Part shown: in pieces, positions 1,311 through 29,610 of the stretch
How the letters are laid out: every line of letters begins with the position of its first letter
How positions within the stretch are numbered: position 1 is the first letter of the stretch
Assembly: GCA_963710375.1 (NCBI GenBank)
Contig: CAVPZX010000001.1
Span: 76,210-140,209 of the forward strand
Direction: 5' to 3'
DNA length: 64,000 bases
Source: Nitrospirota bacterium
Lineage (GTDB): Bacteria > Nitrospirota > Thermodesulfovibrionia > Thermodesulfovibrionales > Dissulfurispiraceae
Translations under genes and position numbers: made by a program
The notes under the pieces: model-generated
Databases searched by the model: none
What the model saw: the letters and a program-made list of their open reading frames with translations, nothing else
What the model was told of the DNA's origin: nothing

Positions 1311-1426
1311 AGCAAGGACTATGCCAGACGAGGTAATACATAATCTTCTTGATTTATTGGGATTTCTGAGTAATGTTATACAGGATGGACATGAATTAAT
1401 TCCAATGCCCATGGAAAAAATACATA
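1311..1426 (-). promoter_or_regulatory. sigma54 promoter with upstream activator sites (module copy 1)
   Basis: TGGCATAGTCCTTGCT (GG-N10-GC) at 1326-1311, plus TGGAATTAATTCA and TGTATTTTTTCCA boxes upstream. Homologous to 16711-16825 and 29494-29610. Confidence 0.85.
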
Positions 1427-1464
1427 TAAGATATATCCATACACTCCGGCACCGGGCGTGTTTT

Positions 1465-2973
1465 TTATGTAACGCTTTTACTCTCGTTAATACGGAAGTG
1501 ATCTTCGAATACCTTCCTGAAATGGAATCCGTATATTGAAAACGTTATGGCCAGGGGGAAGAGTTTAGGACGCCTGAAGAGGGACCAGAAGAAGATCCTC
1601 CAGTAGTAGAAACGCTCTTTCCCGATTATCCCCAGTACGAAAGCAGACTTGAATCCCGCCTTCAAGTAGCTGTACCGCATGTGGATTACGTTTTTCTGAA
1701 CCGGCCTGTACTCACGCAGAAACTTCTTGACCCTGGCATGGTAATGTTTCGGGGAATAAATGGTATCGATGATTTTTTTATAACCGATGAGGAGATTATC
1801 ATAGTTCATTCTAGGAATGAAGTTCATGGAAAGGTCTGTGTTGTCTCCGGTCACTGTCTTTAATAACCTGTTTTCTCTGACAAGCCGGTCATAGAGCTTT
1901 GTCCCCTTTGGCGCGTTAAGGAGTCCCACCATCGCTGTTACAATACCGCTGTCCTGGATGAACCTTATCATTCTCTCGAATATCGATGCAGGGTCTTTGT
2001 CAAAGCCGACGATAAACCCTGCCTGGACTTCAAGCCCGAAGCTTTGAAGCTTCCTGACACTTGCTATAAGGTCCCGGTTCTTATTTGGTATCTTGGTGCA
2101 TTCCAGCAGGCTTTCTTCGTGAGGAGACTCGATGCCCACAAATACAGTGCTGAACTCAGCGCGGGCCATCATTCTCATGAGGTCCTCGTCGTCAGCAAGA
2201 TTGATGGAAGCCTCAGTCGAGAGGTTAAACGGATGTTTTTTAGTGTCCATCCACTGGATAATCGAAGGCAGTATCTCCTCCTTCAGCTTCTTCTTATTGC
2301 CTATGAAGTTGTCGTCCACGAAGAATACTCCGCCTCTCCAGCCAAGCGTGTAGAGTTTCTCCAATTCCCCTATTACCTGCTGACTGCTTTTTGTCCTGGG
2401 GACCCTGCCGTAGAGTGATGTGATGTTACAGAATTCGCACTCGAAAGGACAGCCCCTTGAATACTGGATATTCATGGAGGCGTAGTGCTTCGGGTTTATC
2501 AGCTCCCAGAGGGGGATAGGGGTGGTTGTAATGTCAGCCCATTCATCGGATGCGTATATATGCCGGGGTTGTCCGGCTTTTATATCGTTTAAAAATAGCG
2601 GAAGCGTTATCTCAGCCTCGTTCAGCACCAGATGATCGACATCGGCAAAATCTTCGTATTCATTTGTAAAAAGCGGACCTCCGGCTACTACTTCAACACC
2701 GATGGACCTGCATCGCTGGATTAAGTTTTTTACCGATTCCTTCTGCACAGACATTGCGCTCAAAAAAACATAATCCGCCCACATAAGATCTTTGTCTTCC
2801 AGTTTTCGCACATTCATATCCACGAGCCGCTTCTCCCATTCAGGAGGAAGCATTGCAGCGATTGTCAGTAACCCCAGGGGAGGATGGACAGCCTTTTTTG
2901 AGATGAATTTAAGGGCATAGGAAAAACTCCAGAACGTATCAGGGTATTCCGGATATACCAGGAGCACTTTCAA
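1465..2973 (-). CDS. B12-binding domain radical SAM protein (DUF4070-type C-terminus)
   Basis: PPLGLLTIAA, GGP, RGCPFECEFC (CxxxCxxC), FFVDDNFIG. TTG start after an AAGGAG RBS. Confidence 0.9.
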   Translation of the reverse strand: MKVLLVYPEYPDTFWSFSYALKFISKKAVHPPLGLLTIAAMLPPEWEKRLVDMNVRKLEDKDLMWADYVFLSAMSVQKESVKNLIQRCRSIGVEVVAGGPLFTNEYEDFADVDHLVLNEAEITLPLFLNDIKAGQPRHIYASDEWADITTTPIPLWELINPKHYASMNIQYSRGCPFECEFCNITSLYGRVPRTKSSQQVIGELEKLYTLGWRGGVFFVDDNFIGNKKKLKEEILPSIIQWMDTKKHPFNLSTEASINLADDEDLMRMMARAEFSTVFVGIESPHEESLLECTKIPNKNRDLIASVRKLQSFGLEVQAGFIVGFDKDPASIFERMIRFIQDSGIVTAMVGLLNAPKGTKLYDRLVRENRLLKTVTGDNTDLSMNFIPRMNYDNLLIGYKKIIDTIYSPKHYHARVKKFLREYRPVQKNVIHMRYSYLKAGFKSAFVLGIIGKERFYYWRIFFWSLFRRPKLFPLAITFSIYGFHFRKVFEDHFRINESKSVT

Positions 2974-3083
2974 GTGGAACTCCTTATGTGCACGAGAAAA
3001 GGTTATTAAAGGCTGAGAAAATGCCAAATTGCATTACTTTTGTATACTAGCATAATTAGGATAGGTTTATAAACTATCGGAAG

Positions 3084-3259
3084 GCAGGAGGAGTGGAGCA
3101 CTTGTTTTTCGTCGCGCTGAAACTACCTTTGTCGGCAAATCCCAATGTTTCCATAGCAGCGATCCCCTAATCGGTTCTCAGGTGGGGCTCGGCGTTACTC
3201 GCCCCTTCTACAGTAGACCCGTGCATCGCGTCGAAAAACAAGTGCTGCACTCCTCCTGC
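3084..3259. repeat. 176-bp element with 33-bp terminal inverted repeats (MITE-like long hairpin)
   Basis: GCAGGAGGAGTGGAGCACTTGTTTTTCGTCGCG ... CGCGTCGAAAAACAAGTGCTGCACTCCTCCTGC (2 mismatches). Confidence 0.75.
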
Positions 3260-3271
3260 TATTTAATTATA

Positions 3272-5600
3272 TCAGTCCACATTCGCTTCTGGTGGAGGGG
3301 CTTTTTCCACTTTCGCAGGAGCTTCGCTGTATGTAGTCGGCTGCGTGCCTTCTTTGAAAAACTCATATATCTTCGGAGTCTCAGTGTGCTGCAGCAACCC
3401 TAGTATTGTAGTAGGCTCATCGTGTACCAGAAGGCCGGTGGCAGGGTTAACGGGAAGCCTCACGATGCCTTCAGGAACGGTGAAATCCTCAACAGGGTCG
3501 CCTGCAAGAGCGTCCCTCATGAAGTTTGCCCATATCGGAGCGGCTGCCCTTCCGCCGACCTCACCCCTGCCAAGAGATTTTCTCATATCGTCAAAACCGA
3601 CCCATACACATCCCACCAACTGCGGCGTGTACCCGGCAAACCATGCGTCCTTGTAATCGTTACTGGTACCAGTCTTGCCGGCAGTCTGACCGTCCGATAT
3701 TTGCCCTCATGCCAGTGCCGTAGCTTATAACGTCCTCCATCATTGAGGTAATTAGAAACGCTGTCTGGGGAGAGATGCTCTCGACACCTTCAGGCTCATT
3801 GCTCTCAAGTACGTTTCCCTGCGCATCCGTGACGTATTTAATTGCGATCGGCTTCATTTTTTCCCCACCATTGGCGAACGTGGCATAAGTATATGCCAGT
3901 TCCATAGGAGTGACGCTTATTGAACCGAGCGCTATCGTGAGTTCACGGGGCATGTTAGTGTCTATGCCCACGTCTCGTGCAACGGCCATTACCTTATCAA
4001 TGCCTACCGCCTCTACAAGCTTCACGGTTACAACGTTTCTCGAATAGGCGAGAGCCTCCCGCAGTCTGGTAGGACCGTTAAATTTACGGTCATAGTTCTC
4101 CGGCCGCCACTCTCCGGCAGGTCCTCCGGGATATGAGACCGGCGCGTCGTTGATAATGCTTGCCGGTGTGAAATTGTTCTCCAGCGCAGCGGCATATATT
4201 ATAGGTTTAAAGGCAGAACCGGGCTGCCTCTCTGCATTCAGCGCGCGGTTGTACTCGCTTCTGGTGAAACTATAGCCACCCACGATTGCTCTCACATATC
4301 CTGTTTCAGGTTCAACCGCCACTAACGCGCCTTCAATGTCGGGCTCCTGCTCAAGGCTGAATGTGACATTTTTATTTGCAATGCTCCTGAATTTCACCCA
4401 TATTATATCGCCGCGATGGAGGATATCCGTAAGTCTGAAAGCCTTTGCCGATTCAGGCTTCTTCAGGCCTTTGCCGGCGCTATTAAGGGCCCATAATGCA
4501 TCACCGAGCAGCAGTTTGCCGGTAAGCCCACGTGCCTTAACAACCGCTTCCCTCGGGCCGACCGACATCACGACCCCTGTCGATATATCTCCCGCCGATG
4601 CGGTAAAAGAGACCTTGTGTTCTTTCGTATCCTCTTTTACCAGATCTTTGTGGCCGATTGGACCCCTCCAGCCGCGCCGTTTATCAACCTCACGCAAACC
4701 CTCCTGAAGCGCCCGCTGTGCATACATCTGATCGCTTTTGCTGAGCGTTGTATACGCCTTCAGGCCGCCTTTGTATACCATTTCAACTCCATATTTCTGT
4801 TCCAACTGCTGTCTGACATATTCAAGGAAATAATTGTAGGTGTCGGTGTTTGACCTTAATGACGAAAGAGAGGGTAACGCAGCCTTTGCAGCGGCCCTTT
4901 GAGAGGCGGTTATATATCCTGCCTCTTCCATTCTAGCAAGAACGATTTCCTGCCGTTCCTTTGCTTTTACGAGGTCATTGTAAGGAGAGTAGGTGGAGGG
5001 CGCCTTGATAAGACCTGCCAACATAGCTGCCTCGGGTAGCGTCAGTTGCCCTACTGATTTGCCGAAATATACCCGAGATGCCATCTCTATGCCATAGGCC
5101 CCGTGCCCGAAATATACCTTGTTAAGATATATCTCCAGTATCTCCTTTTTTGAAAGCTCCTTTTCGAGTTTCATTGCAAGCTGGGCCTCGCGGATCTTTC
5201 TTGAGATCGTCTTTTCCGGGGAAAGAAACATTATTTTGGCAAGCTGCTGTGTAATAGTGCTGCCGCCTTCTTTCAGACTCGCATGAATAATATCCTGAAC
5301 CAGGGCGCGGGCAATTCCTATATAGTCAATGCCTTTATGATGCCAGAAGCGGGAGTCCTCGACGGCAACTACAGCATTTTTTACATTGTCGGGGATTTTT
5401 TCAAAAGGTACAAAGATGCCCCTTTCGACTTTCAACTCTCCGATCAGCGAGTCATCATCGGCATATACTTTTGTCCCGTTGGTGGCACGGTATTTTTTGA
5501 GTTCAGCTATTGAGGGGGTGCCCTGTGCAATGGCGAGATAACCGCCGGCCGCCGAACCGATGACTATAACCAGAATAAACAAGACCAGCTTGAAGCGCAT
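3272..5600 (-). CDS. mrcA: Penicillin-binding protein 1A; +1 frameshift near 3690
   Basis: EDSRF, GGSTITQQL, RKIRE, GSAFK (SxxK), SRN. The shifted frame restores AGKTGTSNDYKDAWFAGYTP and joins the 3272-3619 ORF. Confidence 0.92.
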
Positions 5601-5645
5601 TTATTAATTATAAAAGGATGTGATACAATTTTACAACAACGCGTA

Positions 5646-6116
5646 ATGGCAATGCATTTTTTTAAATATATCAGCCCTGTTGGCAACATATATTGTGTTT
5701 TCGCGGGCCCTTTTCTGGTCGAGATGGCTATTCGGGAGCGGCCTGTTCACGCCGCCGGTTTGTCTGAGAGTCCCATGCCGCTCAACAACAGTTTCAAAGC
5801 CGAACTGGATGCCTATTTTGCCGGCAGGCAGAAGATATTCAGGCAAAAAATTAAATTTATTGAAGGGACGGCATTCGAGCGTAAGGTGTGGAGGGCTTTA
5901 AGCGGCATACCTTATGGTGAGACCCGTTCATACCGGTGGATTGCCGAATGCGCAGGCAGTCCGAAAGCGGTGAGAGCGGCAGGGCAGGCTCTTAAGAAGA
6001 ATCCATTGCCTATAATACTACCCTGCCATAGGGTCATTGCATCTGACGGGTCTCTTGGCGGTTATTCCGGCGGTGTTGAAGTAAAACAATGGCTGCTCAG
6101 GCACGAAAAAAAATAG
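5646..6116 (+). CDS. ogt: Methylated-DNA-protein-cysteine methyltransferase
   Basis: IPYGETRSY, RAAG, PCHRV active site. Confidence 0.93.
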   Translation: MAMHFFKYISPVGNIYCVFAGPFLVEMAIRERPVHAAGLSESPMPLNNSFKAELDAYFAGRQKIFRQKIKFIEGTAFERKVWRALSGIPYGETRSYRWIAECAGSPKAVRAAGQALKKNPLPIILPCHRVIASDGSLGGYSGGVEVKQWLLRHEKK

Positions 6117-6129
6117 CGTCGGTATCCAT

Positions 6130-6678
6130 TTAATTGCTATCAGAAGCTGTCAGATAGTTTTCTATTATGTCAGACCATGCTGCATAGCCTTTCTCGCTCA
6201 GGTGCACCCCGTCATTGAGCAGATACTCTTTTTTGGGTTCCGAATCCGGCCCCAAGAATAGACTGTGCAGATCAAGGTAATCCGACTTAAATTCTTTCGC
6301 TATTCCCCTCAGCGAATCATTAAGCCCCCGTAAGGCTGAATTATCTACCCAGGAGAGTACCACGGGCAGAATGCTTTGGATGACTAATTTTGAATTGCTG
6401 AAAGAAGCGGCAAGAATATTGATAATCCTCTTGTAGCTTGAGATGATTTCGTAATCTTCCATTGCCAGGTTGTTAATGCCGGTCATAATAAAAATAAGAT
6501 CCGGTTTTCGGCCTATGTTTTGGATGCTCAGGAGTATTCTGTCCATGCGACCCAAAAGCCCCTCGACCGTTTCCCCGGACACGCCGAGATTTAAGACAAG
6601 AAAGTCAGGGAATCGCTCCTGCCAATCAAAAAACTCCGTCAACGAATCACCAATGAAGACTAAGCACTTATTGTTCAT
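6130..6678 (-). CDS. SGNH/GDSL hydrolase
   Basis: FIGDSLT, NLGVSG, GINN, DGVH. ATG at 6678 with GGAGG RBS. Confidence 0.9.
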   Translation of the reverse strand: MNNKCLVFIGDSLTEFFDWQERFPDFLVLNLGVSGETVEGLLGRMDRILLSIQNIGRKPDLIFIMTGINNLAMEDYEIISSYKRIINILAASFSNSKLVIQSILPVVLSWVDNSALRGLNDSLRGIAKEFKSDYLDLHSLFLGPDSEPKKEYLLNDGVHLSEKGYAAWSDIIENYLTASDSN

Positions 6679-6786
6679 TGAAAAGTGGTTAAACCTCCCT
6701 CTGGACCAGCTTTCTATAGTTATTGATATATAAGAATATACTCGGCAAGCTGAATTCTGCAATTGATTTGCTGTATAATTCTCTTA

Positions 6787-6823
6787 AGGGTCTGCGAATA
6801 AGTAACTTGTGCATTCAGACCCT
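6787..6823. repeat. Solo end of the MITE family seen at 31547-31730
   Basis: AGGGTCTGCGAATAAGTAACTTGTGCATTCAG resembles AGGGCTCGCAAATAAATAACTTGTGCATTCAG, the reverse complement of the 31699-31730 end. Confidence 0.65.
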
Positions 6824-6855
6824 AAACGGTTTTATCGAAGGAGTACGGCATTAAT

Positions 6856-7401
6856 ATGGAAGAGATACAGAGATTTCTGAGCGGGAAAGGTGAAGAAATT
6901 ATTCTCAGGCCAGCTGGGCCGGACGATGCTGAAAGTATTATCAAAGCTTTGAAATCTTTCGCGCCCGAACGCAGTTATGTTCTGATGGAGCAGTTCGGCA
7001 AGGGCGTAGATGCGGAAAGGGAATATATAAGCAAGTTGAGCAGGGACAACAACCTGCTCCTTGTCGGCGTTGCCGGTGACAATCAGGTCATAGGCATTCT
7101 CGAGGCCATTCAGTCCGATGGCGGGCAGAGACCGGAAACTGCACATGTGCTTAACATAGGACTACATCTCATAGAGGCGTTTCGCGGATTGGGCATCGGC
7201 TCCCGCATGCTGCAGTACACTGAAGAGTGGGCAAAGGAACATAAATTCAGGGAGCTGGAGACAAGTGTTTTTACAACAAACAAACGTTCTCTCAATCTGT
7301 TCAGAAAAGCCGGTTTTCTGAATGAGTGCACTAAAGCTAAGAGAATAAGAATGGGAAACGAATTTGTCGATGAAGTTATCATCTGCAAGTTGCTTGACTA
7401 A
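6856..7401 (+). CDS. GNAT N-acetyltransferase
   Basis: FRGLGIGSRM acetyl-CoA motif and NKRSLNLFRKAGF. Confidence 0.88.
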   Translation: MEEIQRFLSGKGEEIILRPAGPDDAESIIKALKSFAPERSYVLMEQFGKGVDAEREYISKLSRDNNLLLVGVAGDNQVIGILEAIQSDGGQRPETAHVLNIGLHLIEAFRGLGIGSRMLQYTEEWAKEHKFRELETSVFTTNKRSLNLFRKAGFLNECTKAKRIRMGNEFVDEVIICKLLD

Positions 7402-7434
7402 GAACGTATACCCATTCTCTGATTGGCCGCAACC

Positions 7435-9137
7435 TTATCTAATATAAGCCTCTGTTACGTATCTTCTCATCATCCTATGGGAATTGAAGTAATAGGCATT
7501 TTTGCCGATGGCGTTCTGCATGACCCTTATCCAAAGAGGCTTTTCATTATAAAACATCGGCATGATAATGCTCTCAAGCTTGTAATACAGGTCATCTGCG
7601 TCACGGGCCGGATCGGCAGGGACATTGGGCGACGGCCCTATGGCCCATCCGGTAAACCCTTCGATATGTCCTTCGATCCACCATCCGTCGAGCACACTGA
7701 AATTCGGGACTCCGTTATGCGTTGCCTTCATTCCGCTGGTTCCTGAGGCCTCGAGCGGCCTGAGCGGTGTATTGAGCCAAACATCGACACCTGATGTGAT
7801 TTTAAGTGCGATATCCATACTATAATTCTTCAGAAATACTATGCGTATCTTGTGCTTGAGCCGCTCTTTAATTTCAAAGATGTGCTGTATCAGCTTTTTA
7901 CCCGATTCATCATGCGGATGGGCCTTTCCCGCATATACAATTTGAAGTCTTCCTTCAGCCATGCGCGCCAACCGGTCCATATCGGTAAAAAGCAGGTCTG
8001 CTCTTTTATAAGCAGTTGCCCTCCTGGCGAATCCGATGGTAAAAGTATCATAATTCATACCCGCCTGCGTCTCGCGGTTTACATAGTCGATAAGTTGCCG
8101 TTTCGCTTCCATATGCGCTTCCCATAGCTCATTGTCCGGGATGCGACCGACCCTTACGAAGATCTCGGGCTCATTGGCCCAGCCAGGCAGGTATTTATCA
8201 TAGAGTCTTTTAAAACTGTCGCACGTCCAGGTAAAGGAATGTACCCCGTTTGTTATGGCATGGATGGCGTATCCGGGAAACATACTCTGAGAAACCTCGC
8301 CGTGTTTTTTTGCCACTCCGTTTATATAGTTGCAGAGATTCAGGGCGAGCAGCGTTAAATTAAGGTAGTCCTGTCCGGCAAATTCTTTTACAGCGCTTAG
8401 AGGAATGATCTCTTCCATTATGCGCTGCACCGTTTCATACGTAAACTTGTCATGCCCTGCAGCCACAGGGGTGTGAGTGGTAAAAACGCATAAACTCCTA
8501 ACCTTCTCGACATCCCATACGAGATTCTCGTCCCACACTTCTTCAATATCTTTTTTGTACCTTTTGAGTAATTCAAGTATCAGGAGGCTCGAATGCCCCT
8601 CGTTCATGTGATATTTCTTGATTTGGAATCCCACTCTTCAAGCATTCGTGTGCCGCCTATACCGAGCACAATTTCCTGTTTGAGCCGGTAGTCGTTATCA
8701 CCTCCGTAGAGACAATGGGTAATGCCCCTGTCCTGAGGCGCATTTTCTCCAAGGTCTGCATCGAGGAAGATAATGGGAACTTTCCCGCCTGTGGCACTTT
8801 CAATGATATATGTCCATGCCCCTATGACAACCTCTCTCCCCTCAATATGAACTATTACCTGTTCTGCGAGCGGATACATAAACTGCTGTGGATCGAACTC
8901 ATCAGGAAGTTCGGTCTGCCTCCCGTATATATCGAGCTCTTGCCTGAAATATCCTTTTTTTGTCAGTAAGGTTACTGCAACCATGGGGAGTTTCAGGTCG
9001 GCGGCTGATTTGATAGTATCTCCTGCCAGCACGCCGAGCCCGCCGCTATAGGTAGGCATATCGCTCCGAACCCCAATTTCCATAGAGAAATATGCTATTT
9101 TCGGCTCTTTTATAAAGGCATCCATACTATATTTCAT
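7435..9137 (-). CDS. glgP: Alpha-glucan (glycogen) phosphorylase; -1 frameshift near 8633
   Basis: YFSMEIG, YSGGLGVLAGD, HMNEGH, FTTHTP, RRATAYKR and EASGTSGMK (PLP lysine), split across two overlapping ORFs. Confidence 0.92.
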
Positions 9138-9191
9138 ACATGGTCCTCCTTGATTATAAATTCATGTTTGCTCGAAAATATTCAGACGTAC

Positions 9192-10025: not shown

Positions 10026-10134
10026 TAATACGAAACATTTACCACCAAACCTCCCAGTTATTGGAACTGCAACGAAAGGGAATGTTGATTTCGAAAATCA
10101 ACAAAGACTGGCTCTTGGACCGGCATAAAATTGT

Positions 10135-10716: not shown

Positions 10717-10782
10717 GGGCAGCCTCCTGCCTTTCAAATTCTAAGTATTCAGCTTACGGTTTATATGCCCGTACACCTCTCT

Positions 10783-11343: not shown

Positions 11344-11642
11344 TTGTAACCTCCCCTTTTGCTTACGGTTATGGAAACGCACCGTTCCAATATACGTTAT
11401 TACCTGCCTGAAGATTCATAATTAAGTGGTGAACTTATGTCAAGTATATCATAGAAGTCCTCTTTATTCATTATAGGCAATAAGGGTTTGAAGAGTACGA
11501 GGTGAAAGTCGTCATCTGCGTAGGATTAATAAATGTTAAAAGGATTTGATAGAATAAAGGAATATAGATAGCAGGGGGGCGATGGGGTGGAACAGATACC
11601 TTGAAAAATAACCGGTCTTTATGCTACATTTCATATTCAAAA

Positions 11643-16710: not shown

Positions 16711-16825
16711 TATGTAATTATTCCATAAAAATGGAATTAATCCATATCCATGATTTTTAACATTCCTCAGGAATCCCAATAAATCAAGAAGATAATACAT
16801 TGTCTTGCCTGGCATATTCCTTGCT
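16711..16825 (+). promoter_or_regulatory. sigma54 promoter with upstream activator sites (module copy 2)
   Basis: TGGCATATTCCTTGCT at 16810-16825; TGTAATTATTCCA and TGGAATTAATCCA boxes upstream. Confidence 0.85.
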
Positions 16826-16907: not shown

Positions 16908-17648
16908 ATGAAAAAAATTTTGTTTTATGCGATGTTGTTGGTTTTTGCGGTAAGCACAATGGCATATGCCGAGGACCTTCGCGTTAATGGCTCAACAACG
17001 ACTATGGGGAAAATCATTTCAAAGATTAAGGCCCCGTTCGAAAAAGCAACAGGCATCCACCTTGCAGTTAACGCCAACGGATCTGGAGCAGGGGCAAAGG
17101 ATCTGATAGCCGGGAAATGTGATGCGAGTGTTGCTTCTGAAAGTCTCGAAGATTTGAAAAAAGCTGTCCCGGAATTAAACAGCATTGCGGACATCAAAAC
17201 TTCAGTACTTGGCAACGATAACCTTGCGATCATTGTAAATAAAGTAAATCCTGTAACCAAACTGAACAAGGAGCAGCTTAAAGGGCTAAACACAGGCAAG
17301 ATCAAGAACTGGAAAGAGGTAGGAGGCATGGATGCAGATGTCATAGTTGTTACTTCCGAAAAGGGATCCGGGACAAGGGCGATGGTTACTAAACAGATTC
17401 TGGACGGCGAACCCTTTTCGGCTGACGTAGTTGAGGCATCAACAACAATGGCAGAGGTTAAGGAAGTGTCATCAATGAAAGAAGCAATAGGCGCAGTAAG
17501 CGAGTCCTTTGTAAACGAAACCGTGAAGCGAGTGGATGGACCTGTCATAGGAAGGCCTTTGCTCATACTTACTAAGGGTGAGCCAAGTGTATCCGTCAAG
17601 AAACTCATTGACTTCATATTGGGCGAAGGGCAACAATATCTCAAATAA
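16908..17648 (+). CDS. PstS-like (PBP2 fold) periplasmic substrate-binding protein
   Basis: Signal peptide, GSTT, GSGAG, IIVN..NPV..L, GKIKNWKEVGG, GSGTR. Confidence 0.85.
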   Translation: MKKILFYAMLLVFAVSTMAYAEDLRVNGSTTTMGKIISKIKAPFEKATGIHLAVNANGSGAGAKDLIAGKCDASVASESLEDLKKAVPELNSIADIKTSVLGNDNLAIIVNKVNPVTKLNKEQLKGLNTGKIKNWKEVGGMDADVIVVTSEKGSGTRAMVTKQILDGEPFSADVVEASTTMAEVKEVSSMKEAIGAVSESFVNETVKRVDGPVIGRPLLILTKGEPSVSVKKLIDFILGEGQQYLK

Positions 17649-17678: not shown

Positions 17679-20136
17679 ATGACGATACGGCAGAAACTCA
17701 CCATTAATGCTGTTGTCATAGGGAGCGTGATCCTTCTTTTGGCCGCGGTAGGCGTTTCAAGTCTGATTTTTATAAAGTCTAAGTTGTCGTACCTCTTGAG
17801 CACCAGCACGCCGTTCCAGGTGAGGACAATCGACCTGCAAAGGACCCTTCAAGTTGCTGTTTCCGACCTGCTGAAGGCAAGCGTTTCGGGCAGCGCGGAC
17901 GAACTCGCCCGACAGAAGGCGAACTTCGGGAAATCGTTTTCTGAAATGAAAGAGGCCGAGGATGCGCTTGAAAAACTTTCGGGCCAGCACAGTGGACTAT
18001 ATGAGGACATAGGGAAATTATCCGGAGAAATATTCGATTCAGCCGGTCAACGGCTGCAGTCGGAGTCCGAAACGAGGCAGGCAGGGGCCTCTATTTCGGA
18101 AAAGATGAAGGACATGACTGCCAGGCTAAAGAATCTGGACTCAAGGGTTTCCGCCATGCAGTCAGGGTATTCAAAGGGCCTGAAGGATGACTTTGAAAGC
18201 TCGAAAACCTCTTCCGTGAAGCTGCGGGACATGGAGGCCCTGAAGTCTTCGCTTGATGAATTGAACAATATGATCATAACCCTGCCTCATACAAAAGAGA
18301 GGAAGCAGGCGCTGGTGCTGAAAAGCAAGTCCAACAGCATCCTCGATAACCTTTTGGAAAGCAGACCGGCGAAGGCTTCCAGGGAAATGTCCTCAACAGT
18401 GACATCCCTTAAGCAGAAAGTTTCCGAATTCTTCGAGCTTAACGCAGCAAACGCAAAGCAGCCCAGCGACGAAACAATGCGTAAGATCGAGGCGGCTTCG
18501 GCCGAAATCCGCGAAAACCTTATATTGTCTCTCGAAACGACGCTGAATCAAAGCGTTCAACTTTCTGACAATGGAAGCCTCAAGCCGGAACAAGCACCAG
18601 GACATTTCTTTTGCTCAGTCGGGACTTGCCACGAACGTGCTTGCGGACAACGCGGCCTTGATGACGGCAGGGCTATCTGTAGAATCATTCGTGGCAAAGC
18701 TCCTGAATGCCTACACATCAGGGGAGGTCGATTACCTGGCGGAGCAAATCAGGAAGTCCTTTGACAGGGCAAATACTTACCAGAAAACTTTGGAGCAAAA
18801 CCTGACGAAACTTGGCGCAAAAGATGAGCTTGTCCTGCTCAGAAACGCCTCTTCCGCACTGCATTCGATACGGGATCTGATTTACGCCGGCAACGGCGTA
18901 ATAGCTAAAATACGCCAGCAAGCGGAAATGAAGGAAAGGGCGGCAGACGCCGGCAACAGGCTCCGACAAACCGTAAATAAATATACCGAGGCAGGCAGGC
19001 AGGATGTACTGGTTGCGCATAAAGCTCAGGAAGACTCCACCGCTTCAGTTAACCGTGTTGTCGGCTTAAGCATATCTTCCAGCATTATCATAGGCGTCGT
19101 TGCAATATTGGTTTCCATTATTGCCAGTATTGCCCTATTCAGGACTGTTGTTATTCCAATAAAACGGACAGAGGAAATTTTTGAATACGCCGAGAGGGAC
19201 AACGACCTTACAAAGCGTCCGAAAGTCGAAACGCATGATGAAATCGGTGATTTGTGCAGCAGCTACAACAAATTTATGGATAAACTCCATAGTACGATAA
19301 ATGATGTAGCCGGATTTACATCTAACCTTGCATCGTCGTCAAGTGAGTTATCTGCGACTTCGCAACAAATGACCGGCAGGGCCAGGACGCAGGTTGAGGA
19401 AACTGAGAGCATTGCCACTGCTTCCGAGGAAATGTCGGCAACGGTACTCGACGTCTCCAGAAACGCGCAGGACGCGTCTGAATTCGCCATGCGCTTGAAA
19501 AATACTTCTCTTGAAGGCGGGGAAGTGGTCAGACAAAGTATTCATGGCATAAAGGCTGTATCCGTTTCCTTTGAAGACATCTCAAGCATTATCGACAAAC
19601 TTGCGAGCAGTTCGGAGCAGATAGGGAAAATTGTCTCTGTCATCAAGGATATTTCCGATCAGACCAATCTTCTCGCCCTGAATGCTGCCATAGAGGCAGC
19701 CCGCGCTGGGGAACAAGGACGCGGCTTTGCCGTGGTCGCAGATGAAGTCAGGAAACTGGCAGAGAGAACCAATACCTCAGCATCTGAAATTTCCTCAATG
19801 ATTTTGTCCATACAAGGAGAGGTCACAACGGCAAAAACATCTATGGAAAAAGGGAGAACGGATATCAGCACCGGCGTATCGCTGTCGAACAAGGCGGAAG
19901 AAGCTTTAAAAGAAATATCCAATGGCGTTGATACAGTGACTGACATGATATCCCATATAGCTGCTGCATCCCATCAGCAATCAACCACGGTTGAAACGAT
20001 ATCAGGCAATGTGCTTCACATATCCCAGGTAACAAATGAGTTTGCTGCTGCGATGTCCCAGCTTACACAGACAGCGGAGGGTCTTGATAGAATATCATCA
20101 AAGATCCGTGAGATGGTTGGGCAATTCAAAATTTAA
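17679..20136 (+). CDS. Methyl-accepting chemotaxis protein with a very large periplasmic domain; frameshift near 18570
   Basis: N-terminal TM in the first ORF; second TM, HAMP (DEIG) and [35 protein letters not shown] in the overlapping second ORF. Confidence 0.9.
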
Positions 20137-20225
20137 GGGCGAGCCCTATCAGATATTGTCATTTAGTATTTTTTGTAATATAATTTTTATCGGGAAGCAA
20201 GATAATATCATGGGGGCCTGAAAAA

Positions 20226-20570: not shown

Positions 20571-20573
20571 GGG

Positions 20574-21320: not shown

Positions 21321-21331
21321 GACCCTGACTT

Positions 21332-22876
21332 TTACCTTGTTATCCAGCGACGCCCGTCCTGCTCAAGCAGCCGGTTCGCCGCTTCCGGACCCCAGGTGCC
21401 GGCAGCGTAATTAGGGAAATCCAAAGGGGGAGTACTTTCCCACAGGCTGATGATCGGGTCAACGATCTCCCACATCTCCTCGACAGTATCTTGCCTCACA
21501 AAAAGCGTCATATCCCCTTTCAGCATATCGACAAGCAACCGCTCATAAGCAGGGTGCACGGGCAGCTTAAATGTTTCGTTATAGTTGAAAACCATATCCA
21601 CCGGATATACCTGGTTCTCGGAATAGGGGTATTTCACACTAAACCGTAGGGAAATCTTTTCATGAGGCTGGATGGTCAGAACAAGTATATTAGGCTCCAG
21701 GATATCGCATGTCCTCCCGAAGAGCTTGACAGGAAAATGTTTAAGCTGTAAGCATATCTCGGTGACCCGCCTGGGCATGCGCTTGCCTGTGCGGAAATAA
21801 AAAGGCACACCTGCCCACCGGAGATTGTCTATATAGAATTTTCCGGCAAAAAAAGTGGGGACGTTTGAATCAGAGGCTACCCGGTCCTCCGCTCGGTAGC
21901 CCGGGACCTCGCTGCCGTTTAATTCCCCTCGGCCATACTGCCCCCTTACCAAATAGTTTGCATCTATTGAATGGACCGACCTGAATATTTTTAATTTCTC
22001 CTCGCGTATAAAATCGTCTTTAAACCCAACAGGAGGCTCCATTGCGATAAGGCCGAAAAGTTGCATCATGTGATTCTGCACGATGTCCCTCACCACCCCG
22101 GCCTGTTCATAGAATGCGCCCCGGTGCTCGATGCCGACATCTTCAGCGACAGTAATCTGCACATTGTCCACGTAATGCCGGTTCCATATTTCAGCAAAAA
22201 GAGTATTGATAAAACGCAGGAATATAATGTTCTGGACCGGGTCTTTGGCAAGGTAATGATCTATCCGGTATATTTGACGTTCATCAAACGTGTCGGTCAA
22301 TACCTTATTAAATTCGACTGCAGACTTACGGTCATTCCCGAACGGTTTTTCAATAATTATTTTGGTATTGAATATCCCCTGACAGAGGTTGTGCTTCTTT
22401 AATTGATGAACGGCCATCGGAACAACTTGCGGTGGGACCGCCATGTAGTAAACAACCTCCTTGCTTCCTTTAGCATCAGGGATGGTAATCCGGGAAATCT
22501 TCACGCTCAGGTCTTCATAGCTCTCATCTTGCCCGAAATCTCCAGAAAGAAAGTAAAGATGCCGGCTGAACTGGTCCCATTTCTCCTCGTCAAATTCTCC
22601 TTCACCGAACTGTTTGACTGCATCCTTCATCATGGCCCTGTAATCCTCATCACTCATTTTATTGCGGCCGAAACCGAGTATCGAGAATTTCTGATCAGGC
22701 ACCACTTTGTCGCAAAATAGACTAAAGATTGCCGGCAGAAGCTTTCGCTTGCTCAGATCACCGGCCCCGCCGAAGATCACCATGGTAAATGGCTCGATAA
22801 CGGTTTTCTCTGCCGGTATATCGCAGGTTTGAAGGAACTTGCTGTAGAGAACCTCTTTATCTATTTCAGAAGTCAT
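21332..22876 (-). CDS. zwf: Glucose-6-phosphate 1-dehydrogenase
   Basis: GGAGDLSKRKLLPA, EKPFG, RIDHYL, RDIVQNH, RWAGVPFYFRTGK. Confidence 0.97.
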   Translation of the reverse strand: MTSEIDKEVLYSKFLQTCDIPAEKTVIEPFTMVIFGGAGDLSKRKLLPAIFSLFCDKVVPDQKFSILGFGRNKMSDEDYRAMMKDAVKQFGEGEFDEEKWDQFSRHLYFLSGDFGQDESYEDLSVKISRITIPDAKGSKEVVYYMAVPPQVVPMAVHQLKKHNLCQGIFNTKIIIEKPFGNDRKSAVEFNKVLTDTFDERQIYRIDHYLAKDPVQNIIFLRFINTLFAEIWNRHYVDNVQITVAEDVGIEHRGAFYEQAGVVRDIVQNHMMQLFGLIAMEPPVGFKDDFIREEKLKIFRSVHSIDANYLVRGQYGRGELNGSEVPGYRAEDRVASDSNVPTFFAGKFYIDNLRWAGVPFYFRTGKRMPRRVTEICLQLKHFPVKLFGRTCDILEPNILVLTIQPHEKISLRFSVKYPYSENQVYPVDMVFNYNETFKLPVHPAYERLLVDMLKGDMTLFVRQDTVEEMWEIVDPIISLWESTPPLDFPNYAAGTWGPEAANRLLEQDGRRWITR

Positions 22877-22889
22877 GGCTCGACACTCC

Positions 22890-23753
22890 TTACGCTATAA
22901 GATCATTCCAGTCTTTCGAAAACCTTTCCATACCCTTGACCGTCAGGTCATGGGCAATATCATAGTCCCGCCAATTCTTCGAAAGATCGATATCTTTATA
23001 TGGGATGTCTTTCAGTGAGTCATGCTTGTAAATATAATTGGCGTCAGGAAAAGGCATGCCCCTCTGTCCCCATTGCCGTATTATTTCATACGGGGAGGTG
23101 ATTATGTCGGAGCCAAGTTTCAGAGCGTAGAGAAAGTGGTCCATGCTGCGAACGCTGGCAGTCAGCACTTCCACATGGCCGTCGCCCTGGCGGTACATCT
23201 TTAAAATACTCGCAATCAAATCCATCCCGTTTTCTCCCCTGTCGTCAAGCCTGCCAATAAAAGGAGAGACAAATACCTGCCCTTTCCGGGCGCCTCTCGT
23301 TGCGGCGTAAACAGCCGCCGCCTGCTCCTGCGTGAAGCAAAGAGTCATGTTGACGCGAAGTCCTTCTTTGATTGCCTGTTCCGCTGCTTTCAGTCCCTCC
23401 GTTGATGTCGGGAACTTTATGTGCGCATTGGGTATCCAGGAAAACATATCCCTGCCCATTGCCAGCATTTTTTCTGCCGGAGTCGATGAATCAGCATAGA
23501 CTTCAACAGAGACAGACCCCAGGGGTATCAAAGCAGAGATGGTCTTTACCACGTTGCGGTAAAAATCAAATATCTCATCCTGCGTGAATTTCGATCCGTG
23601 CGCAAGGCGATCTTTGGCCCTTGGGTTTTTCGAGATGAGAGTAGGATTTGTTGTCTGTCCGTCAAGAAAACCCAGAAGAGAGATGACTCCTACGGCCTCA
23701 TCAGGGTCGCCTCCGTCCAGAAATATTCTTGACCTTAGGTTCTGCGGTTTCAT
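22890..23753 (-). CDS. tal: Transaldolase
   Basis: FLD, TTNPTL, VSVEV, IKFP, VNMTLCF, SPFIGRLDD, ASVR. Confidence 0.92.
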   Translation of the reverse strand: MKPQNLRSRIFLDGGDPDEAVGVISLLGFLDGQTTNPTLISKNPRAKDRLAHGSKFTQDEIFDFYRNVVKTISALIPLGSVSVEVYADSSTPAEKMLAMGRDMFSWIPNAHIKFPTSTEGLKAAEQAIKEGLRVNMTLCFTQEQAAAVYAATRGARKGQVFVSPFIGRLDDRGENGMDLIASILKMYRQGDGHVEVLTASVRSMDHFLYALKLGSDIITSPYEIIRQWGQRGMPFPDANYIYKHDSLKDIPYKDIDLSKNWRDYDIAHDLTVKGMERFSKDWNDLIA

Positions 23754-25615
23754 AAAACCTCCCTTACCTTTTTTATAATAGCGTTCTTTGAAATCTCCTC
23801 GTAATCAAGCAACTCTTCCGGTTTTCCGCTTTTGGGCATCTTACGCACCGCCAGCGAGTATATCGGTGTGGGCTCACCGGCAAGGGCGCTCCTGACCGCC
23901 TCTCCGATGCCGCCTTCTTCGTGATGGTCCTCTACTGTTATGACTGCCCTGGTACCCATTATCGTCCATTTAAGGGCCTCACTGTCGATCGGCTTTATAC
24001 AGTAAAGATCGACAACCCGGATATTAATGCCTTCTCTTGCAAGTTCCTCGCAGGCTGCGAGCGCTTCAAAAACCGTCACACCCGCAGCGATGACCGTGAC
24101 ACTATCGTTGACGCTCTGCCTGAGGGTCTTGGATTTTCCGATGGGGAATGACTCATGCGCACCATAAAGGATTGGGGTATTTTCTCTTGTGGTGCGTATG
24201 TAGACCATCCCTTTGTGCAGCGCAGCCTCTTCTACCAGTTTTTCGGTTGAGATGGCATCGGAAGGATACAGCACGACACAGTTCAGCACCGACCTGAACA
24301 TTGCGATGTCCTCGAGGCCCATTTGGGAGGGACCATCCTGTCCTATGGATACCCCTGCATGGGACCCGCAGAATTTTATGTTCGACTCCGAATACTGGGT
24401 CATTCTTATCTGGTCGAAGGCACGGGTAAAGAATGCCGCGAAAGTAGATACAAAAGGTATTTTCCCCCTGCAAACTAAACCCAATGCAGAGCCTACCATA
24501 TTCTGCTCCGCAATATACATCTCGAAAAACAGGTCCGGGAAGGCATTCTTAAATTCATCGGAATAAGTTGAATTGCTCACCTCGCCATCAAGCACCACCA
24601 TATCCGGGAATTCAGGGAATATCCGCTTCAGTGCATTGCCGTATGCCTTTCTCGTTGCAACAGGTTTTCCATTATCGTATCCGAGTGGACCGGCATTGCC
24701 GGGGGAGTTCTTCTCAGGGTAAAGGTCTTCAGGTTTGGCTATTTGTCCCCTCAATGAGGTATCGACAGTCCCCAGGTCCCTGAGTGCCTGATCGAGTTGC
24801 TCCTTGTTCAACGCCTTGCCGTGCCAGCCGTTTTTATCCTCAACAAAAGATACTCCCTTGCCTTTGATAGTCCTGGCGATTATCATCACAGGCTTGTCCC
24901 TGCTCTCCACTGCTTTGTAATAAGCAGGCAGTATCTCATCAAAGTTGTGCCCGTCTATGACAATCGTCTCCCAGCCGAATGAAGCAATTCTTGATTCATA
25001 TGCCCCGGTATCATGGCCATACATAGTTTCACCGCGCTGTCCCAGGCGATTAACGTCGAGAATGCCGATGAGGTTATTGAGCCTGTAATGAGCGGCCAAC
25101 TGCATCGCCTCCCATTGCGAGCCTTCCGCCATCTCGCTGTCACCAAGCAGCACGTAAGTTCGATAGGGGAGCTTGTCAACATATTTGGCGTTCAGGGCCA
25201 TTCCTGATCCGATGGAGAGCCCCTGTCCCAACGAGCCGGTTGCCGCCTCGGCATAACGGAAAGTTACCGTAGGATGACCCTCCAGCGTGCTTCCGAACTG
25301 CCTGTACGTCATCAATTCCTGCACGCTTATTTTTCCGGCTGCGGTCCATAAGGAATAAAGGAGCGGAGAAGCATGGCCTTTAGAAAAGATGAGGCGGTCA
25401 TTGTTGGGATGTTTTGGGTTTTCTGCATTGTATTTGAATAATCCTGTAAACATAAGTCCGACGAGCAAATCGGCAGCTGACAAAGAAGACGTAGGATGGC
25501 CCGAGCCGGCCCCGGTAGTGCAAATAAGTATAAAATAGCGGACCAGCCTGGCAAGCTTTTCGAGATCAACCGTCCCTTCTTTATGGCCGGCCACATTCTT
25601 TATTTCATCTTTCAT
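23750..25615 (-). CDS. tkt: Transketolase
   Basis: SGHPTSSLS, DRLIFSKGHA, TGSLGQG, GDSE (TPP motif), IAEQNMV, DGPSQM. Confidence 0.95.
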   Translation of the reverse strand: MKDEIKNVAGHKEGTVDLEKLARLVRYFILICTTGAGSGHPTSSLSAADLLVGLMFTGLFKYNAENPKHPNNDRLIFSKGHASPLLYSLWTAAGKISVQELMTYRQFGSTLEGHPTVTFRYAEAATGSLGQGLSIGSGMALNAKYVDKLPYRTYVLLGDSEMAEGSQWEAMQLAAHYRLNNLIGILDVNRLGQRGETMYGHDTGAYESRIASFGWETIVIDGHNFDEILPAYYKAVESRDKPVMIIARTIKGKGVSFVEDKNGWHGKALNKEQLDQALRDLGTVDTSLRGQIAKPEDLYPEKNSPGNAGPLGYDNGKPVATRKAYGNALKRIFPEFPDMVVLDGEVSNSTYSDEFKNAFPDLFFEMYIAEQNMVGSALGLVCRGKIPFVSTFAAFFTRAFDQIRMTQYSESNIKFCGSHAGVSIGQDGPSQMGLEDIAMFRSVLNCVVLYPSDAISTEKLVEEAALHKGMVYIRTTRENTPILYGAHESFPIGKSKTLRQSVNDSVTVIAAGVTVFEALAACEELAREGINIRVVDLYCIKPIDSEALKWTIMGTRAVITVEDHHEEGGIGEAVRSALAGEPTPIYSLAVRKMPKSGKPEELLDYEEISKNAIIKKVREVL

Positions 25616-25857
25616 TTGGCACCTCACTTTTAATGGCTTAAGAATCAAGCGTCCCGGTAGCTGAATACCATAAATTGTATCACATATTTTAATGTTCCGT
25701 TACTTTGCGCCCGGCAGAAGATTTATGTCTGAATTGACATGTATTAACCTTTTTTTTTTGGATTGCGCTTTGTATTCCTCTCAGAATTGAATTATAATTC
25801 TCTCACTATGTGTGATGCAGTAAATCGATGTCAGTTGTGCACGATAAGAGGTCAGAG

Positions 25858-27331
25858 ATGTACATAGTCATGATAACTCCGGAATGTGCCCCTGCCGCTA
25901 AAGTGGGCGGCCTCGCAGACGTTGTGTACGGTCTTTGCCACGAGACTCGATATCCGGGGAAACGATGTCGAAATCATACTGCCGAAATACGACTGCATGC
26001 GGTATGATCAGATCTATGGGCTGCAAATGGCCTATAACGACCTATGGGTCCCTTTTTATGAGCGATGGGTGCATTGCTCAGTATTTTTCGGTTTCGTGCA
26101 CGGAAGGAAATGTTATTTTATCGACCCCCATTCGGAGAAGAACTTCTTTAACAGGGGTATTTTTTACGGCCATAGCGACGATCCCGAGCGGTTTGCTTTT
26201 TTCTGCAGGGCTGCCCTTGAGTTTATGCTCAAGTCGAATAAGCATCCCGACATAATCCACTGCCACGACTGGCAGACCGGAATCGTGCCGGTACTTCTCT
26301 TTGATATGTTCAAGGGTTATGGCATGACACATCCCCGCGTCTGTTACACCCTGCACAACCTCATGCATCAGGGAGTGACCGGGGAGTTTATATTGCGTGC
26401 TGTTGGACTCCACAGGCCGGATTATTATCTTCACCCCGACCGGCTCAGGGATAACTTCAATCATTCCGCATTGAACCTCATGAAGGCCGGTATTGTATAT
26501 TCGAATTTTGTGACTACCGTGTCTCCCAGTTATGCATGGGAGATCAAGCATTCCGAACTGTCATACGGACTCGGTCACACCCTTCACGTCCATGGGCAGA
26601 AGTTCGGTGGTATCCTTAACGGCATTGACTACGACGTATGGAACCCCGAGATCGACCGGTACATCCCATACCGGTATAAAATAGAAACGATTCAGGACAA
26701 ATACGGTAACAAAGAGGCACTTCGCAACAGGCTTCTCCTCCGGCATGTTTATAAGCCCATCGTATCGTACATAGGCAGACTGGACCAACAAAAAGGGGTA
26801 GGACTGATAAGGGATGCAATATTCTATTGCCTGTCAAACGGCTGCCAATTCGTCCTTCTTGGTTCTGGTCCGGACCACGGTATTCACAATCATTTTCTCC
26901 ATCTCAAGCACCAGCTGAATGACAACCCCGACTGCCATATCGAGATCGGATTTAACGAGGAACTCTCGCACCTCATATATGCCGGATCGGATATGATAAT
27001 TGTCCCCAGCCTGTTCGAGCCCTGCGGGCTGACCCAAATGATAGCCCTGAAATACGGGACAGTGCCTGTAGTGAGGGCGACCGGTGGTTTGCGGGACACG
27101 GTCTTTGATGCCGACTATAGCCATAGGCCCTATCACGAGCGGAACGGATATGTATTCAACGACTTCAATTTCGAGGGAATGCAGTCGGCGCTTACGCGCG
27201 CAATCGGCATGTGGTATTCTTATCCGCAACACTTCAGGGAACTGATGGTAAACGGCATGCGCTATGATTTTTCATGGAACCACCCCGCATACCACTACCT
27301 GAATATCTATGCACATATCAGGGACAAGTGA
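25858..27331 (+). CDS. glgA: Glycogen synthase; +1 frameshift near 25945
   Basis: MYIVMITPECAPAAKVGGLADV from ATG 25858 joins LDIRGNDVEIILPKY if one A is removed; HCHDWQT, PSLFEPCGLTQM, TGGL. Confidence 0.94.
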
Positions 27332-27362
27332 GGGCTTTGTTTAGTACCTCAGTCGCGCCTCC

Positions 27363-29354
27363 TTATTTTTGTCCGCATTCACTCTTGAGACCATCGATAA
27401 GACTTGCTATTTCGTCTGATACATTCTCCATCTCCGTGTAAATCCTGTCCGCTTTTGCCTTATCGCCCATATTGTGTGCCTGGACAGCTTCTTTTGCCAT
27501 AGCATGTATTTTTTTATGCGGCTCGCTTAATGCCTTAAAGCCGCGGAATCTGCCGCACAGCTGCTCCCCTTCGCTAAAATACCATTTCCCGAATCTGCAT
27601 GATCTGTCGTCCGGTAATTGTGACGGTTCAATGGTTGCTTCACCATGAAGGCATGAACTTATTTTGCCCATGAATATCCTGTGGTCTGTTTTGGCCAAAT
27701 CAAGTATCATCAATCCCTGTCCTTTGACTTTGAACCCGGAAGTGAAATTCCTTAATTCCTCCGCAGTCTTTGAAAGACCGCTCACCTCATGTAAGACATC
27801 CCTTGATATGACCTCCATCTCCCTCGATATAGCCGATGTTTTTTCAATGCCGCCTGCCACCTGCTCCGCTGCTGCCGATTGTTGATCGACAGCAGTGGCA
27901 ATTTGCGTTATCTGGTCTTTAACTCCCTGCACCTCGTTCACAATGCGGTGTAAAGAATCTCCAACATTTTTTATATATTCATTAGCCTTTGTTACTTCTT
28001 CGGATGCCTCATTCATTGACTTTGAAGTCTGTTCGGATTCAGACTGTATCGTCCCGATTTTGTCTGATATTTCGGCCGTTGCCTTTATTGTTCTTTCAGC
28101 AAGTTTGCGGACTTCGTCTGCAACAACCGCGAACCCCCTTCCTTGCTCCCCTGCCCTTGCAGCTTCTATTGCGGCATTTAAAGCAAGCAGGTTTGTCTGA
28201 TCGGCTATGTCGGTAATTACTGTTACTATGTCTCCCACCTCCGCAGCGCGGCCATTAAGTTTTTCGACCATTGTTGCGAGTTCCATTGTGGAAGTGTGTA
28301 CCTTTTTCACTATTCCGACCGCTCCATCGGCCACTTGCAAACCCTCCGAAGCAGTCTCCATCGCTCTGGAAGAAGTATCCGACGCCGCTGAGGCATTTTT
28401 TGCTATGTCCGTTATCGTATGGGTCATTTCCTCAGCGGCAGTCGAAATTTGAGCAGCCTGATCAGCCTGGCTGCTTGCCCCGTCTTCCGCTTTTTGCGCC
28501 CTCACCCTCAACATATCGACGGTTGATACCAAATCGTTTGCAGAGGTCACTATAGTACCTATTATTTTATTGAATGACTTGTTCATTCCACTGAATGAAG
28601 ATAGTAATTGTCCGGTCTCATCAGTGCTGGTGACTTCAATATCGGAAGTCAGGTCGCCTTCAGCCATCTTGTTGGATATGTTAATTGTTTCAATGAGAGG
28701 GCGGGTTATGCCGCGGGCAATTAAAAAACTGATGACAAATCCGATGGCAACCGACACCAAGCCTATTATCCCTAAAATGGTTTTGGCTTTCAGTGATATG
28801 CTCGCCACTGTATTCTTGGCGGAAGCAAATCTGCCGACACCCTCGTTAAAAAAGTTTTCGGCAGATGCCTCCGTATTGTTTATAGCGTCTTTGTACTGAG
28901 TGATCGCGGCATTGGCTTCCTGAGGGGTTTTTATCCTGCCTGCCCCTATGTCACTGTATACTTTATTAAACCCGGAGTAATAAAGCGATAAAGAATTATT
29001 CATAGTTTTTACAGAATCTTTTTCTTTGGAGGTTTGTAAAACTGTTTCCAGGCTCTTTAGCGCCTTAGTGGCGGCTTCATAGTGTGAGCTCCATTTTTTG
29101 AAAGATTCGCTTCTTTTATCCTGAGAATCGATATTCAAAAACAGGTCCTTCTCAAAACGGCGCATGCCGAGGACTTCGGTCATTAACCGTGAAGCGTGCT
29201 CCGCTATACGCCCGTCTACATCGGTTACTTCAGCAATAGTATCTGAAGACATGGAAATACAATAGTAACCCACTATCCCCATTGCTATAATAAGAAAAGA
29301 CATTAAGCCGGTTAATAAAAGCAACCTAGTACCGATTTTAGCGTTTTTTAACAT
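27363..29354 (-). CDS. Methyl-accepting chemotaxis protein with C-terminal CZB zinc-binding domain
   Basis: Two TMs, HAMP, MCP core, KTDH..CRFGKWY..HKKIH. Confidence 0.93.
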
Positions 29355-29493
29355 TGTTGCCCTCCATTATTTTTCAAATCTTGCCATTATTATGATATAG
29401 ATAGTAATTTTATCTGCGTTTTATAATTTGCAATTTTACTGCCGTACCAAATAGCTGATTTTCAATTGTTAGATTTGATTGACGCAATAATGC

Positions 29494-29610
29494 AGCAAGT
29501 GCTATGCCAGGCTAGACGATGCATTATCCTTTTGATTTATTGGGATTTCTGAGAAATGTTACACAACGTGGATGTGGATTAATTCCAATGTTTTTGGAAA
29601 AATTCCATAA
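29494..29610 (-). promoter_or_regulatory. sigma54 promoter with upstream activator sites (module copy 3)
   Basis: TGGCATAGCACTTGCT at 29509-29494; TGGAATTTTTCCA and TGGAATTAATCCA boxes upstream. Confidence 0.85.

Follow-up and report, generated by a model that had tools for sequence, protein, structure and literature searches.

The 64,000-nt window analysed here, from contig CAVPZX010000001.1 of a Nitrospirota bacterium, contains three chemoreceptor loci, each headed by a module of about 120 bp that combines two dyads of the TGGAAT-N-ATTCCA type, a site resembling those of the integration host factor (IHF) and a sigma54 -24/-12 box. The sequence-only reading had proposed that the whole promoter was copied as a cassette. 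Our comparisons revealed 27 copies in the source genome (G000, 3.19 Mb; other G numbers denote relatives, and L numbers the fetched loci) and showed that the module was indeed copied and inserted, as seen in sites that are empty in relatives, in shared passenger flanks and in ends of an insertion sequence (IS) beside some of the copies. The copies are named k1–k27, those of the window being k1 (at 29494), k2 (at 16711) and k3 (at 1311).

Anatomy, copy number and conservation of the module

The three window copies align along their entire length at the positions listed in Table 1, with pairwise identities of 78–83%, and each contains the TGGCATA-N4-TTGCT box and two dyads. The proximal dyad is TGGAATTAATCCA in k2 and k1 (at 16732 and 29587) and TGGAATTAATTCA in k3 (at 1404), while the distal dyad, 19–20 bp further upstream, is more degenerate. 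The central block described earlier is present, but three letters before its GAT are variable (RAR), rather than two. With the T of TGG as origin, the first letters of the two dyads are at -98 and -78, and that of the AATCAA site is at -28. Relative to a presumed transcription start 12 nt past the GC, the dyads fall near -118 and -98 and the IHF-like site near -50; such positions are usual for enhancer and IHF sites, with upstream dyad sites about 80–150 bp from the start. In the accessible text of PMC4641369, most activator sites are no further than 100 nt from the promoter. The sigma54 box has a fixed spacing in all copies, with TTGC in 27 of 27 and GG in 26, and the IHF-like site (AATCAA-N4-ATA) has one mismatch to the IHF consensus. 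The -24/-12 box and the upstream dyads uphold the sigma54 promoter architecture proposed at first. Contigs from other public runs carry k3 (run X4, from another study) and k2 (run X5) with zero substitutions.

A profile built from the window copies found 24 further copies in the genome, at E values of 9e-34 to 6.6e-8 (4e-40 to 6.6e-8 for all 27), and since the next match has an E value of 0.24, a chance resemblance is excluded. The module contains 25 of the 39 strong sigma54 boxes (TGGCAY-N5-TTGCW) and 24 of the 28 near-perfect proximal dyads of the genome. A sequence-only covariance model, trained on G000 and with 48 candidates scored per genome, gave 27 matches in G000 and 0–5 in each of nine congeners (relatives 74–100% complete), including three in G003 (100% complete) and none in G007 (98% complete). 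Among 58 genomes of other genera it returned three weak single matches, one of them false. In the k24–k4 region, no contig of the other runs skips a copy. Two copies, k8 and k16 (G000:C2:332660-332951), stand back to back, 40 bp apart, and face divergent genes.

The copies are not uniformly conserved. The mismatch per site is 3.2% at 28 motif columns versus 19.9% at the 69 others (permutation p 1e-5), a comparison in which the dyad columns were picked from the finding itself and the copies were recruited by similarity. By part, it is 1.2% in the sigma54 core and 4.1% in both the proximal dyad arms and the IHF-like site, versus 28% in the spacer of the sigma54 box itself, 19% between the motifs and 22% in the distal dyad. 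Mismatches are thus six times rarer at motif positions than in spacers, in keeping with selection for a promoter function, and column conservation among the copies follows that in six distant promoters (Spearman 0.41). The predicted function of the copies as sigma54 promoters is well supported by sequence comparisons.

Empty junctions and insertion sequence ends

Fourteen of the 27 sites were compared with those of relatives. Three are shared, namely k13, k23 (with G003) and k27 (with G001 and G009). At eight other junctions (k4, k5, k9, k14, k17, k20, k22 and k24), relatives keep the junction without the module, indicating that the promoter was inserted alone. The gspE–gspF gap that holds k4 is 192 bp in G000 and 6, 102 and 3 bp in relatives, and the gap at k24 is about 500 bp versus 37–74 bp. 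The k5 gap measures 338 bp versus 22 bp, with three more empty relatives, and the k9 gap 242 bp versus 27 bp, with five more relatives, one of which has an unrelated longer stretch. The remaining junctions are empty in one relative with both flanks (k14), in two (k17), in one (k20) and in four (k22, tested via its upstream gene). As the k5, k9 and k17 junctions are empty in more distant congeners also, a gain in G000 is favoured over a loss elsewhere. No close orthologues were found for the genes behind k16 and k22. The window copies arrived together with the genes behind them: the two genes flanking the 3.47-kb block that k2 heads are neighbours in G005 and G003, and behind the genes upstream of k1 and k3 the relatives have other DNA. 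Tandem-word repeats occupy the junctions in G003 (L105, L121, L127) where G000 has k4, k5 and k14, and these junctions may be insertion-prone.

Some copies have passenger flanks. The k24 copy includes 44 bp of the 3' end of an activator gene, at 89% identity; k5 and k21 have about 60 bp of upstream flank in common; and a copy in G008, before an HD-domain gene, carries the activator-gene tail together with the start of fliL. The variable flanks of k24 and of k5 and k21 point to routes of spread besides the IS described below.

These data bear on whether the same binding sites evolved independently, as sigma54 regulons do share motifs through selection, or whether the module is a structured RNA, as its dyads can be drawn as hairpins. 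Both ideas are largely refuted and retain next to no probability. The non-motif columns are 67.5% identical between copies (mean copy identity 74.5%; the copies are old), the spacing is fixed, passengers are shared and sites are empty in relatives. The consensus fold reaches -3.5 kcal/mol, with none of seven pairs covarying (23 of the 27 copies aligned), and Rfam gave no match for the window or for the 17 loci scanned out of 25 fetched, on which grounds the module and leader were judged to contain neither a structured RNA nor a c-di-GMP riboswitch.

The IS ends suggest a vehicle. The tract behind k22 matches five near-identical repeats in G007. They are the right end of an IS that measures 1445 bp, encodes a transposase of 432 aa (NF033594, 415 bits, cut-off 250), is bounded by TGT...ACA and is flanked by duplications of 16–17 bp. 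These features assign it to the ISTde1 subgroup of IS1202, as described in the accessible part of bioRxiv 10.1101/2022.12.17.520857. Intact cognate transposases are present in G007; none was found in G000, nor any inside the module. The k22 copy is a 316-bp unit composed of left end, module and right end, with 15/14-bp direct repeats abutting both ends, and its target is single in all four relatives compared. Furthermore, all five strong right-end matches in G000 lie 14–33 bp behind a module. With 1500 AT-rich windows as the null, a significant right end lies behind k5, k6, k8, k14 and k22 (each above all 1500) and a marginal one behind k3, k15, k1 and k9 (p 0.017–0.047, not robust over 27 tests), and the left end is found before k22 (p 0.003) and k4 (p 0.001). 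Both ends are thus present in one copy (k22), the right end only in four, a left fragment only in one (k4) and neither in 21. The 24 module copies in relatives have no scoring IS end, and the 26 copies besides k22 have no direct repeats at the predicted ends. Ten G000 copies have the first 60 nt of the k22 leader in common. As this leader also matches that of fliL in G003, it is ambiguous where the leader gives way to the transposase tail. From these matches we infer that the IS accounts for a share of the spread.

Other readings were rejected. A left-end match before k16 is the end of k8 read backwards. An apparent ribosome site and ATG in the shared leader do not represent a conserved open reading frame (ORF) and overlap the last transposase codons. 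For a dif-like AT-rich left edge, the genome has three matches to the dif-like pattern, none at a copy, and the subgroup of the IS is the one with long duplications rather than the one that targets xrs. A 56-copy IS of G005 was dismissed, as its ends differ by eye; the 56 matches to an IS1202-like transposase in that congener (L162 and others) represent a large IS expansion. Two sites deserve separate mention. The k22 unit (L020:1400-1790) was inserted into a TGTGA-N6-TCACA sequence, which we take to be a CRP/FNR-like box, directly behind a Crp-family gene that is followed by another gene in relatives. In G008 (L153:1490-1600), an HU gene is preceded by a lone right end of the same IS that terminates in TTGACA, the corresponding site in G000 being empty, and it is possible that this end serves as a portable -35 box.

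Genes behind the copies and other features of the window

The copies do not fall at random relative to genes: 26 of the 27 face a same-strand gene, in most cases one for chemotaxis, motility or signalling, 12–327 nt past the GC (p 2e-7 versus an even orientation), while k19 faces none and has a broken -24 element. The expectation that the module precedes chemoreceptor loci holds directly for k1 and k3, but k2 precedes a periplasmic binding-protein gene first and a chemoreceptor gene second. The proposed set of three chemoreceptors proved too narrow. The module is not chemoreceptor-specific, and only 9 of the 18 chemoreceptor domains in the genome lie within 4 kb behind a copy. Even without the three window copies, this is an enrichment (6 observed versus 0.27 expected, p 5e-5). 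Chemoreceptors are the first or second gene behind k1, k2, k3, k8, k10, k11, k15, k21 and k23. Other genes in these positions belong to chemotaxis and motility (the cheR cluster, k5; cheV, k14; motAB, k17; a fliL-like gene, k13; PilZ, k20), to signalling (sensor kinases, k6, k7, k12 and k18; a bacterial enhancer-binding protein (bEBP), k21) or to other functions (secretin and gspF/pilC, k24 and k4; hemerythrin, k27). The insertion of k4 (L002:1441-1635) parts gspE from gspF with 12 nt between the GC and the ATG, and use of this promoter would therefore have gspF translated from a message without a leader. In G005 (L138), the PilZ gene comes immediately after fliL, under the likely ancestral module; in G000 it has moved and has its own copy, k20 (L018).

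Selfish or neutral debris of a transposable element of the miniature inverted-repeat type (MITE), spread as an IS derivative and mostly silent, would account for the IS ends, the missing transposase, the 10–25% decay per copy, the state of k19 and some odd targets. This explanation is nevertheless very improbable, given that TTGC is invariant while the spacer of the same box varies, that motifs and spacers differ as described above, and that the copies display an orientation bias and the chemoreceptor enrichment.

Table 1. Coordinates of the module copies, their parts and the genes behind them in the window
Feature	Position	Strand	Remark
Module copy k3, whole	1311..1426	-	Profile match; independent contig agrees
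k3 distal dyad, degenerate, predicted activator site	1412..1424	-	
k3 proximal dyad, predicted activator site	1392..1404	-	
k3 IHF-like site (AATCAA-N4-ATW)	1342..1354	-	Putative
k3 sigma54 -24/-12 box	1311..1326	-	
k3 passenger tract common to IS-tailed copies (fliL leader / transposase-tail start)	1261..1286	-	Match to real IS ends p = 0.017 only
Cache-HAMP chemoreceptor gene behind k3	1..1152	-	Continues beyond window; frame broken at 139 by an assembly error
Module copy k2, whole	16711..16825	+	Left end of 3.47-kb block absent from two relatives; independent contig agrees
k2 distal dyad	16713..16725	+	
k2 proximal dyad	16732..16744	+	
k2 IHF-like site	16782..16794	+	
k2 sigma54 -24/-12 box	16810..16825	+	
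PstS-like periplasmic binding protein gene, first behind k2	16908..17648	+	
Chemoreceptor gene, second behind k2	17679..20136	+	818 codons discounting extra base 18557
Module copy k1, whole	29494..29610	-	Profile match
k1 distal dyad	29595..29607	-	
k1 proximal dyad	29575..29587	-	
k1 IHF-like site	29525..29537	-	
k1 sigma54 -24/-12 box	29494..29509	-	
4HB-HAMP-MCP-CZB chemoreceptor gene behind k1	27363..29354	-	

Contigs of other runs identify the frame breaks at 139 and 18557 as single-base assembly errors, and the corrected ORFs have 497 and 818 codons. Covering runs differ from the assembly by single-base indels at 139, 3685 (three of four runs), 8633 and 18557. The split ORFs of the window, namely two chemoreceptor genes, the end of a PBP1 gene and a phosphorylase gene, are assembly errors, and other split ORFs in the genome may be likewise. 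A hopanoid cluster (squalene-hopene cyclase, radical SAM, MMPL, MlaA/MlaC) occupies 29624-40498. The stretch from 49485 to the contig end at 64000 is island-like, with a type ISP restriction-modification gene, AbiEii, RadC, MqsA-SecB, a KAP NTPase, IS21 istAB and several ORFs that have no Pfam match.

Predicted regulator, proposed history and meaning

One module site is widely shared. It lies between a gene for an activator with REC-AAA+-HTH architecture and a fliL-like gene in six congeners, and it recurs in G065, of another genus, where the gene behind has no Pfam match. This gap is likely to be the conserved, ancestral site and the donor, and the activator (G000:C5:492035-493375) is the best candidate for the regulator. 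All eight of its orthologues with at least 66% identity, across two genera, have the dyad pair and a sigma54 box downstream, and neither module nor orthologue was found in G007 and G002; these relatives are kin and not independent, making the association a lead. The dyads had been attributed to a FleQ/FlrA-like bEBP. They are indeed likely to be an activator site, being kept in distant orthologous promoters where the spacers are not, but the candidate is a response regulator, whose Response_reg domain is a canonical receiver with an acidic pocket and an acceptor Asp. FleQ/FlrA-type activators have a non-phosphorylated N-terminal domain. The GAFTGA-type loop of the candidate reads GSFTGA, a form listed as a functional variant in the accessible text of PMC4641369, and six of seven close orthologues have GAFTGA, the other not being called. 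No NCBIfam bEBP equivalog was above its cut-off among the 25 matches listed. The genome also has rpoN and two IHF-like genes (tblastn).

Taken together, these data lead us to propose, as a probable explanation, that a sigma54 unit, likely originating in the activator–fliL gap, came to occupy 27 places by copying and likely brings the genes behind it under the control of that activator. The phosphorylated activator would bind the dyads near -118 and -98, IHF would bend the DNA near -50, and sigma54 polymerase would start about 12 nt past the GC. The spread would have begun as slow duplication within the genus (2–5 copies). In the G000 lineage, one copy would next have been captured by a pair of IS ends; the resulting non-autonomous element, about 320 bp long, would have fired outward by way of its right end. 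Other copies would have travelled together with DNA at their flanks or with genes for chemoreceptors. Since then, the transposase may have been lost and the ends eroded, copies facing useful genes being retained. Only tentatively, with slightly less than even confidence, do we extend this to the proposal that an IS1202-derived mini-element captured a whole enhancer-dependent sigma54 promoter, seeded most of the sigma54 sigmulon of the species (25 of 39 strong boxes) and built a motility and signalling regulon of 26 loci, controlled by one two-component activator, within the history of one species.

Several observations weigh against the probable explanation given first. The tree of 50 copies is an unresolved star (G048a, a false match, was excluded), and neither the order nor the monophyly of the copies is established. 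IS ends are significant in only 6 of the 27 copies and not firm for those of the window (k3, p 0.017; k1, p 0.037; k2, none), and a direct repeat is found at the predicted ends in one copy only, that of k22, with an unpositioned p of 0.02. Among the genes, a glycosyltransferase, a cNMP-AAA protein, DegP, TpsB and one uncharacterised gene are poorer motility fits, k19 has no gene in front and k4 lies only 12 nt before the ATG. As for the regulator, the genome has about 24 bEBP genes; 19 more distant homologues of the candidate have an almost identical recognition helix, 18 of them without a dyad nearby and one with a single dyad; and G001 (88% complete) has four copies and no activator orthologue that we could find.

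The same functional promoter could instead have spread with no transposition involved, through illegitimate duplication and through hitch-hiking on chemoreceptor genes that were themselves duplicated; the ends of the IS would then be a later insertion, incidental to one sub-lineage. The many copies without a significant IS end, in G000 and in relatives, fit such a course, as do the variable boundaries at k24 and at k5 and k21, and the arrival of k1, k2 and k3 with chemoreceptor genes where relatives have other genes. We regard it as unlikely, however, because k22 retains left end, module, right end and a duplicated target that is single in relatives, and because every strong right-end match lies just behind a module. 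Less probable again is a promoter that is real and co-regulated but whose dyads are read by another bEBP, for instance one of those encoded behind k18 or k21. The number of bEBP genes, the helix in paralogues that lack the dyad and the copies of G001 speak for it, whereas the dyad pair directly downstream in all eight close orthologues, and the joint lack of dyads and activator in G007 and G002, favour the activator next to fliL.

Promoter reuse, promoter-carrying MITEs and REP2 are already known (PMC3575422, PMC3184786, PMC9330008). Putative mobile promoters (PMPs) are homologous promoter regions before unrelated genes within one genome and were proposed as a rewiring route (Nijveen, Matus-Garcia and van Passel 2012, PMC3575422). 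Many module pairs, with 80–87% identity over 93–132 nt before unrelated genes (gspF, fliL, HEAT-cheR), fall within the PMP definition of at least 80% over at least 50 nt. However, PMPs are mostly pairs of about 92% identity and, in the accessible text, of unknown mechanism, while the module has 27 copies, an enhancer–IHF–sigma54 anatomy, a likely donor, empty sites, IS ends and a signal of selection. The six module copies that have an IS end resemble the Neisseria Correia elements, which the available parts of PMC3184786 and PMC9330008 describe as repeats derived from an IS, non-autonomous and equipped with outward promoters and an IHF site. Those parts name no sigma54 or activator-dependent promoter for them, whereas the cargo here appears to be a captured host promoter of the bEBP-dependent type, and most module copies now lack terminal repeats. 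Neisseria REP2 is also a repeat without terminal repeats, carrying a promoter upstream of 14 co-induced genes; unlike the module, which is of the sigma54 type and has IS remnants, it has a ribosome site, an ATG and stem-loops (PMC3184786, accessible text). The G007 element whose ends match is of the ISTde1 subgroup, for which the preprint text available describes passenger genes and no promoter-carrying derivative; G000 keeps only remnants of the ends, with a promoter replacing the transposase. DVU1063 of Desulfovibrio vulgaris is likewise a response-regulator bEBP over many motility operons, but the largest regulons in the accessible text of PMC4641369 comprise 6, 9 and 12 operons, assembled from motif matches, compared with 26 loci and one copied 120-bp unit here, and the first genes behind module copies include no flagellar basal-body operon. 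Our literature search, mostly confined to sources outside subscription journals and to texts without their supplements (such as the tables of the IS1202 preprint), found no mobile element with an enhancer-dependent sigma54 promoter.

How bacteria gain many regulon members quickly is an open question, and promoter reuse has been catalogued mostly as pairs lacking a donor, vehicle or function. In the genome described here, a likely donor locus and a vehicle can be seen together with sites that are empty in relatives and a signal of selection. Silent until the activator fires, and with its own enhancer aboard, a sigma54 unit makes a good portable switch. The case makes promoter-driven rewiring directly testable, provides a new candidate activator–motif pair and suggests that similar cassettes are worth seeking in other genomes. 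If the proposal of an IS1202-derived mini-element is true, bacteria would here provide an example of regulon expansion built by a transposon, its cargo being conditional and silent until activated.

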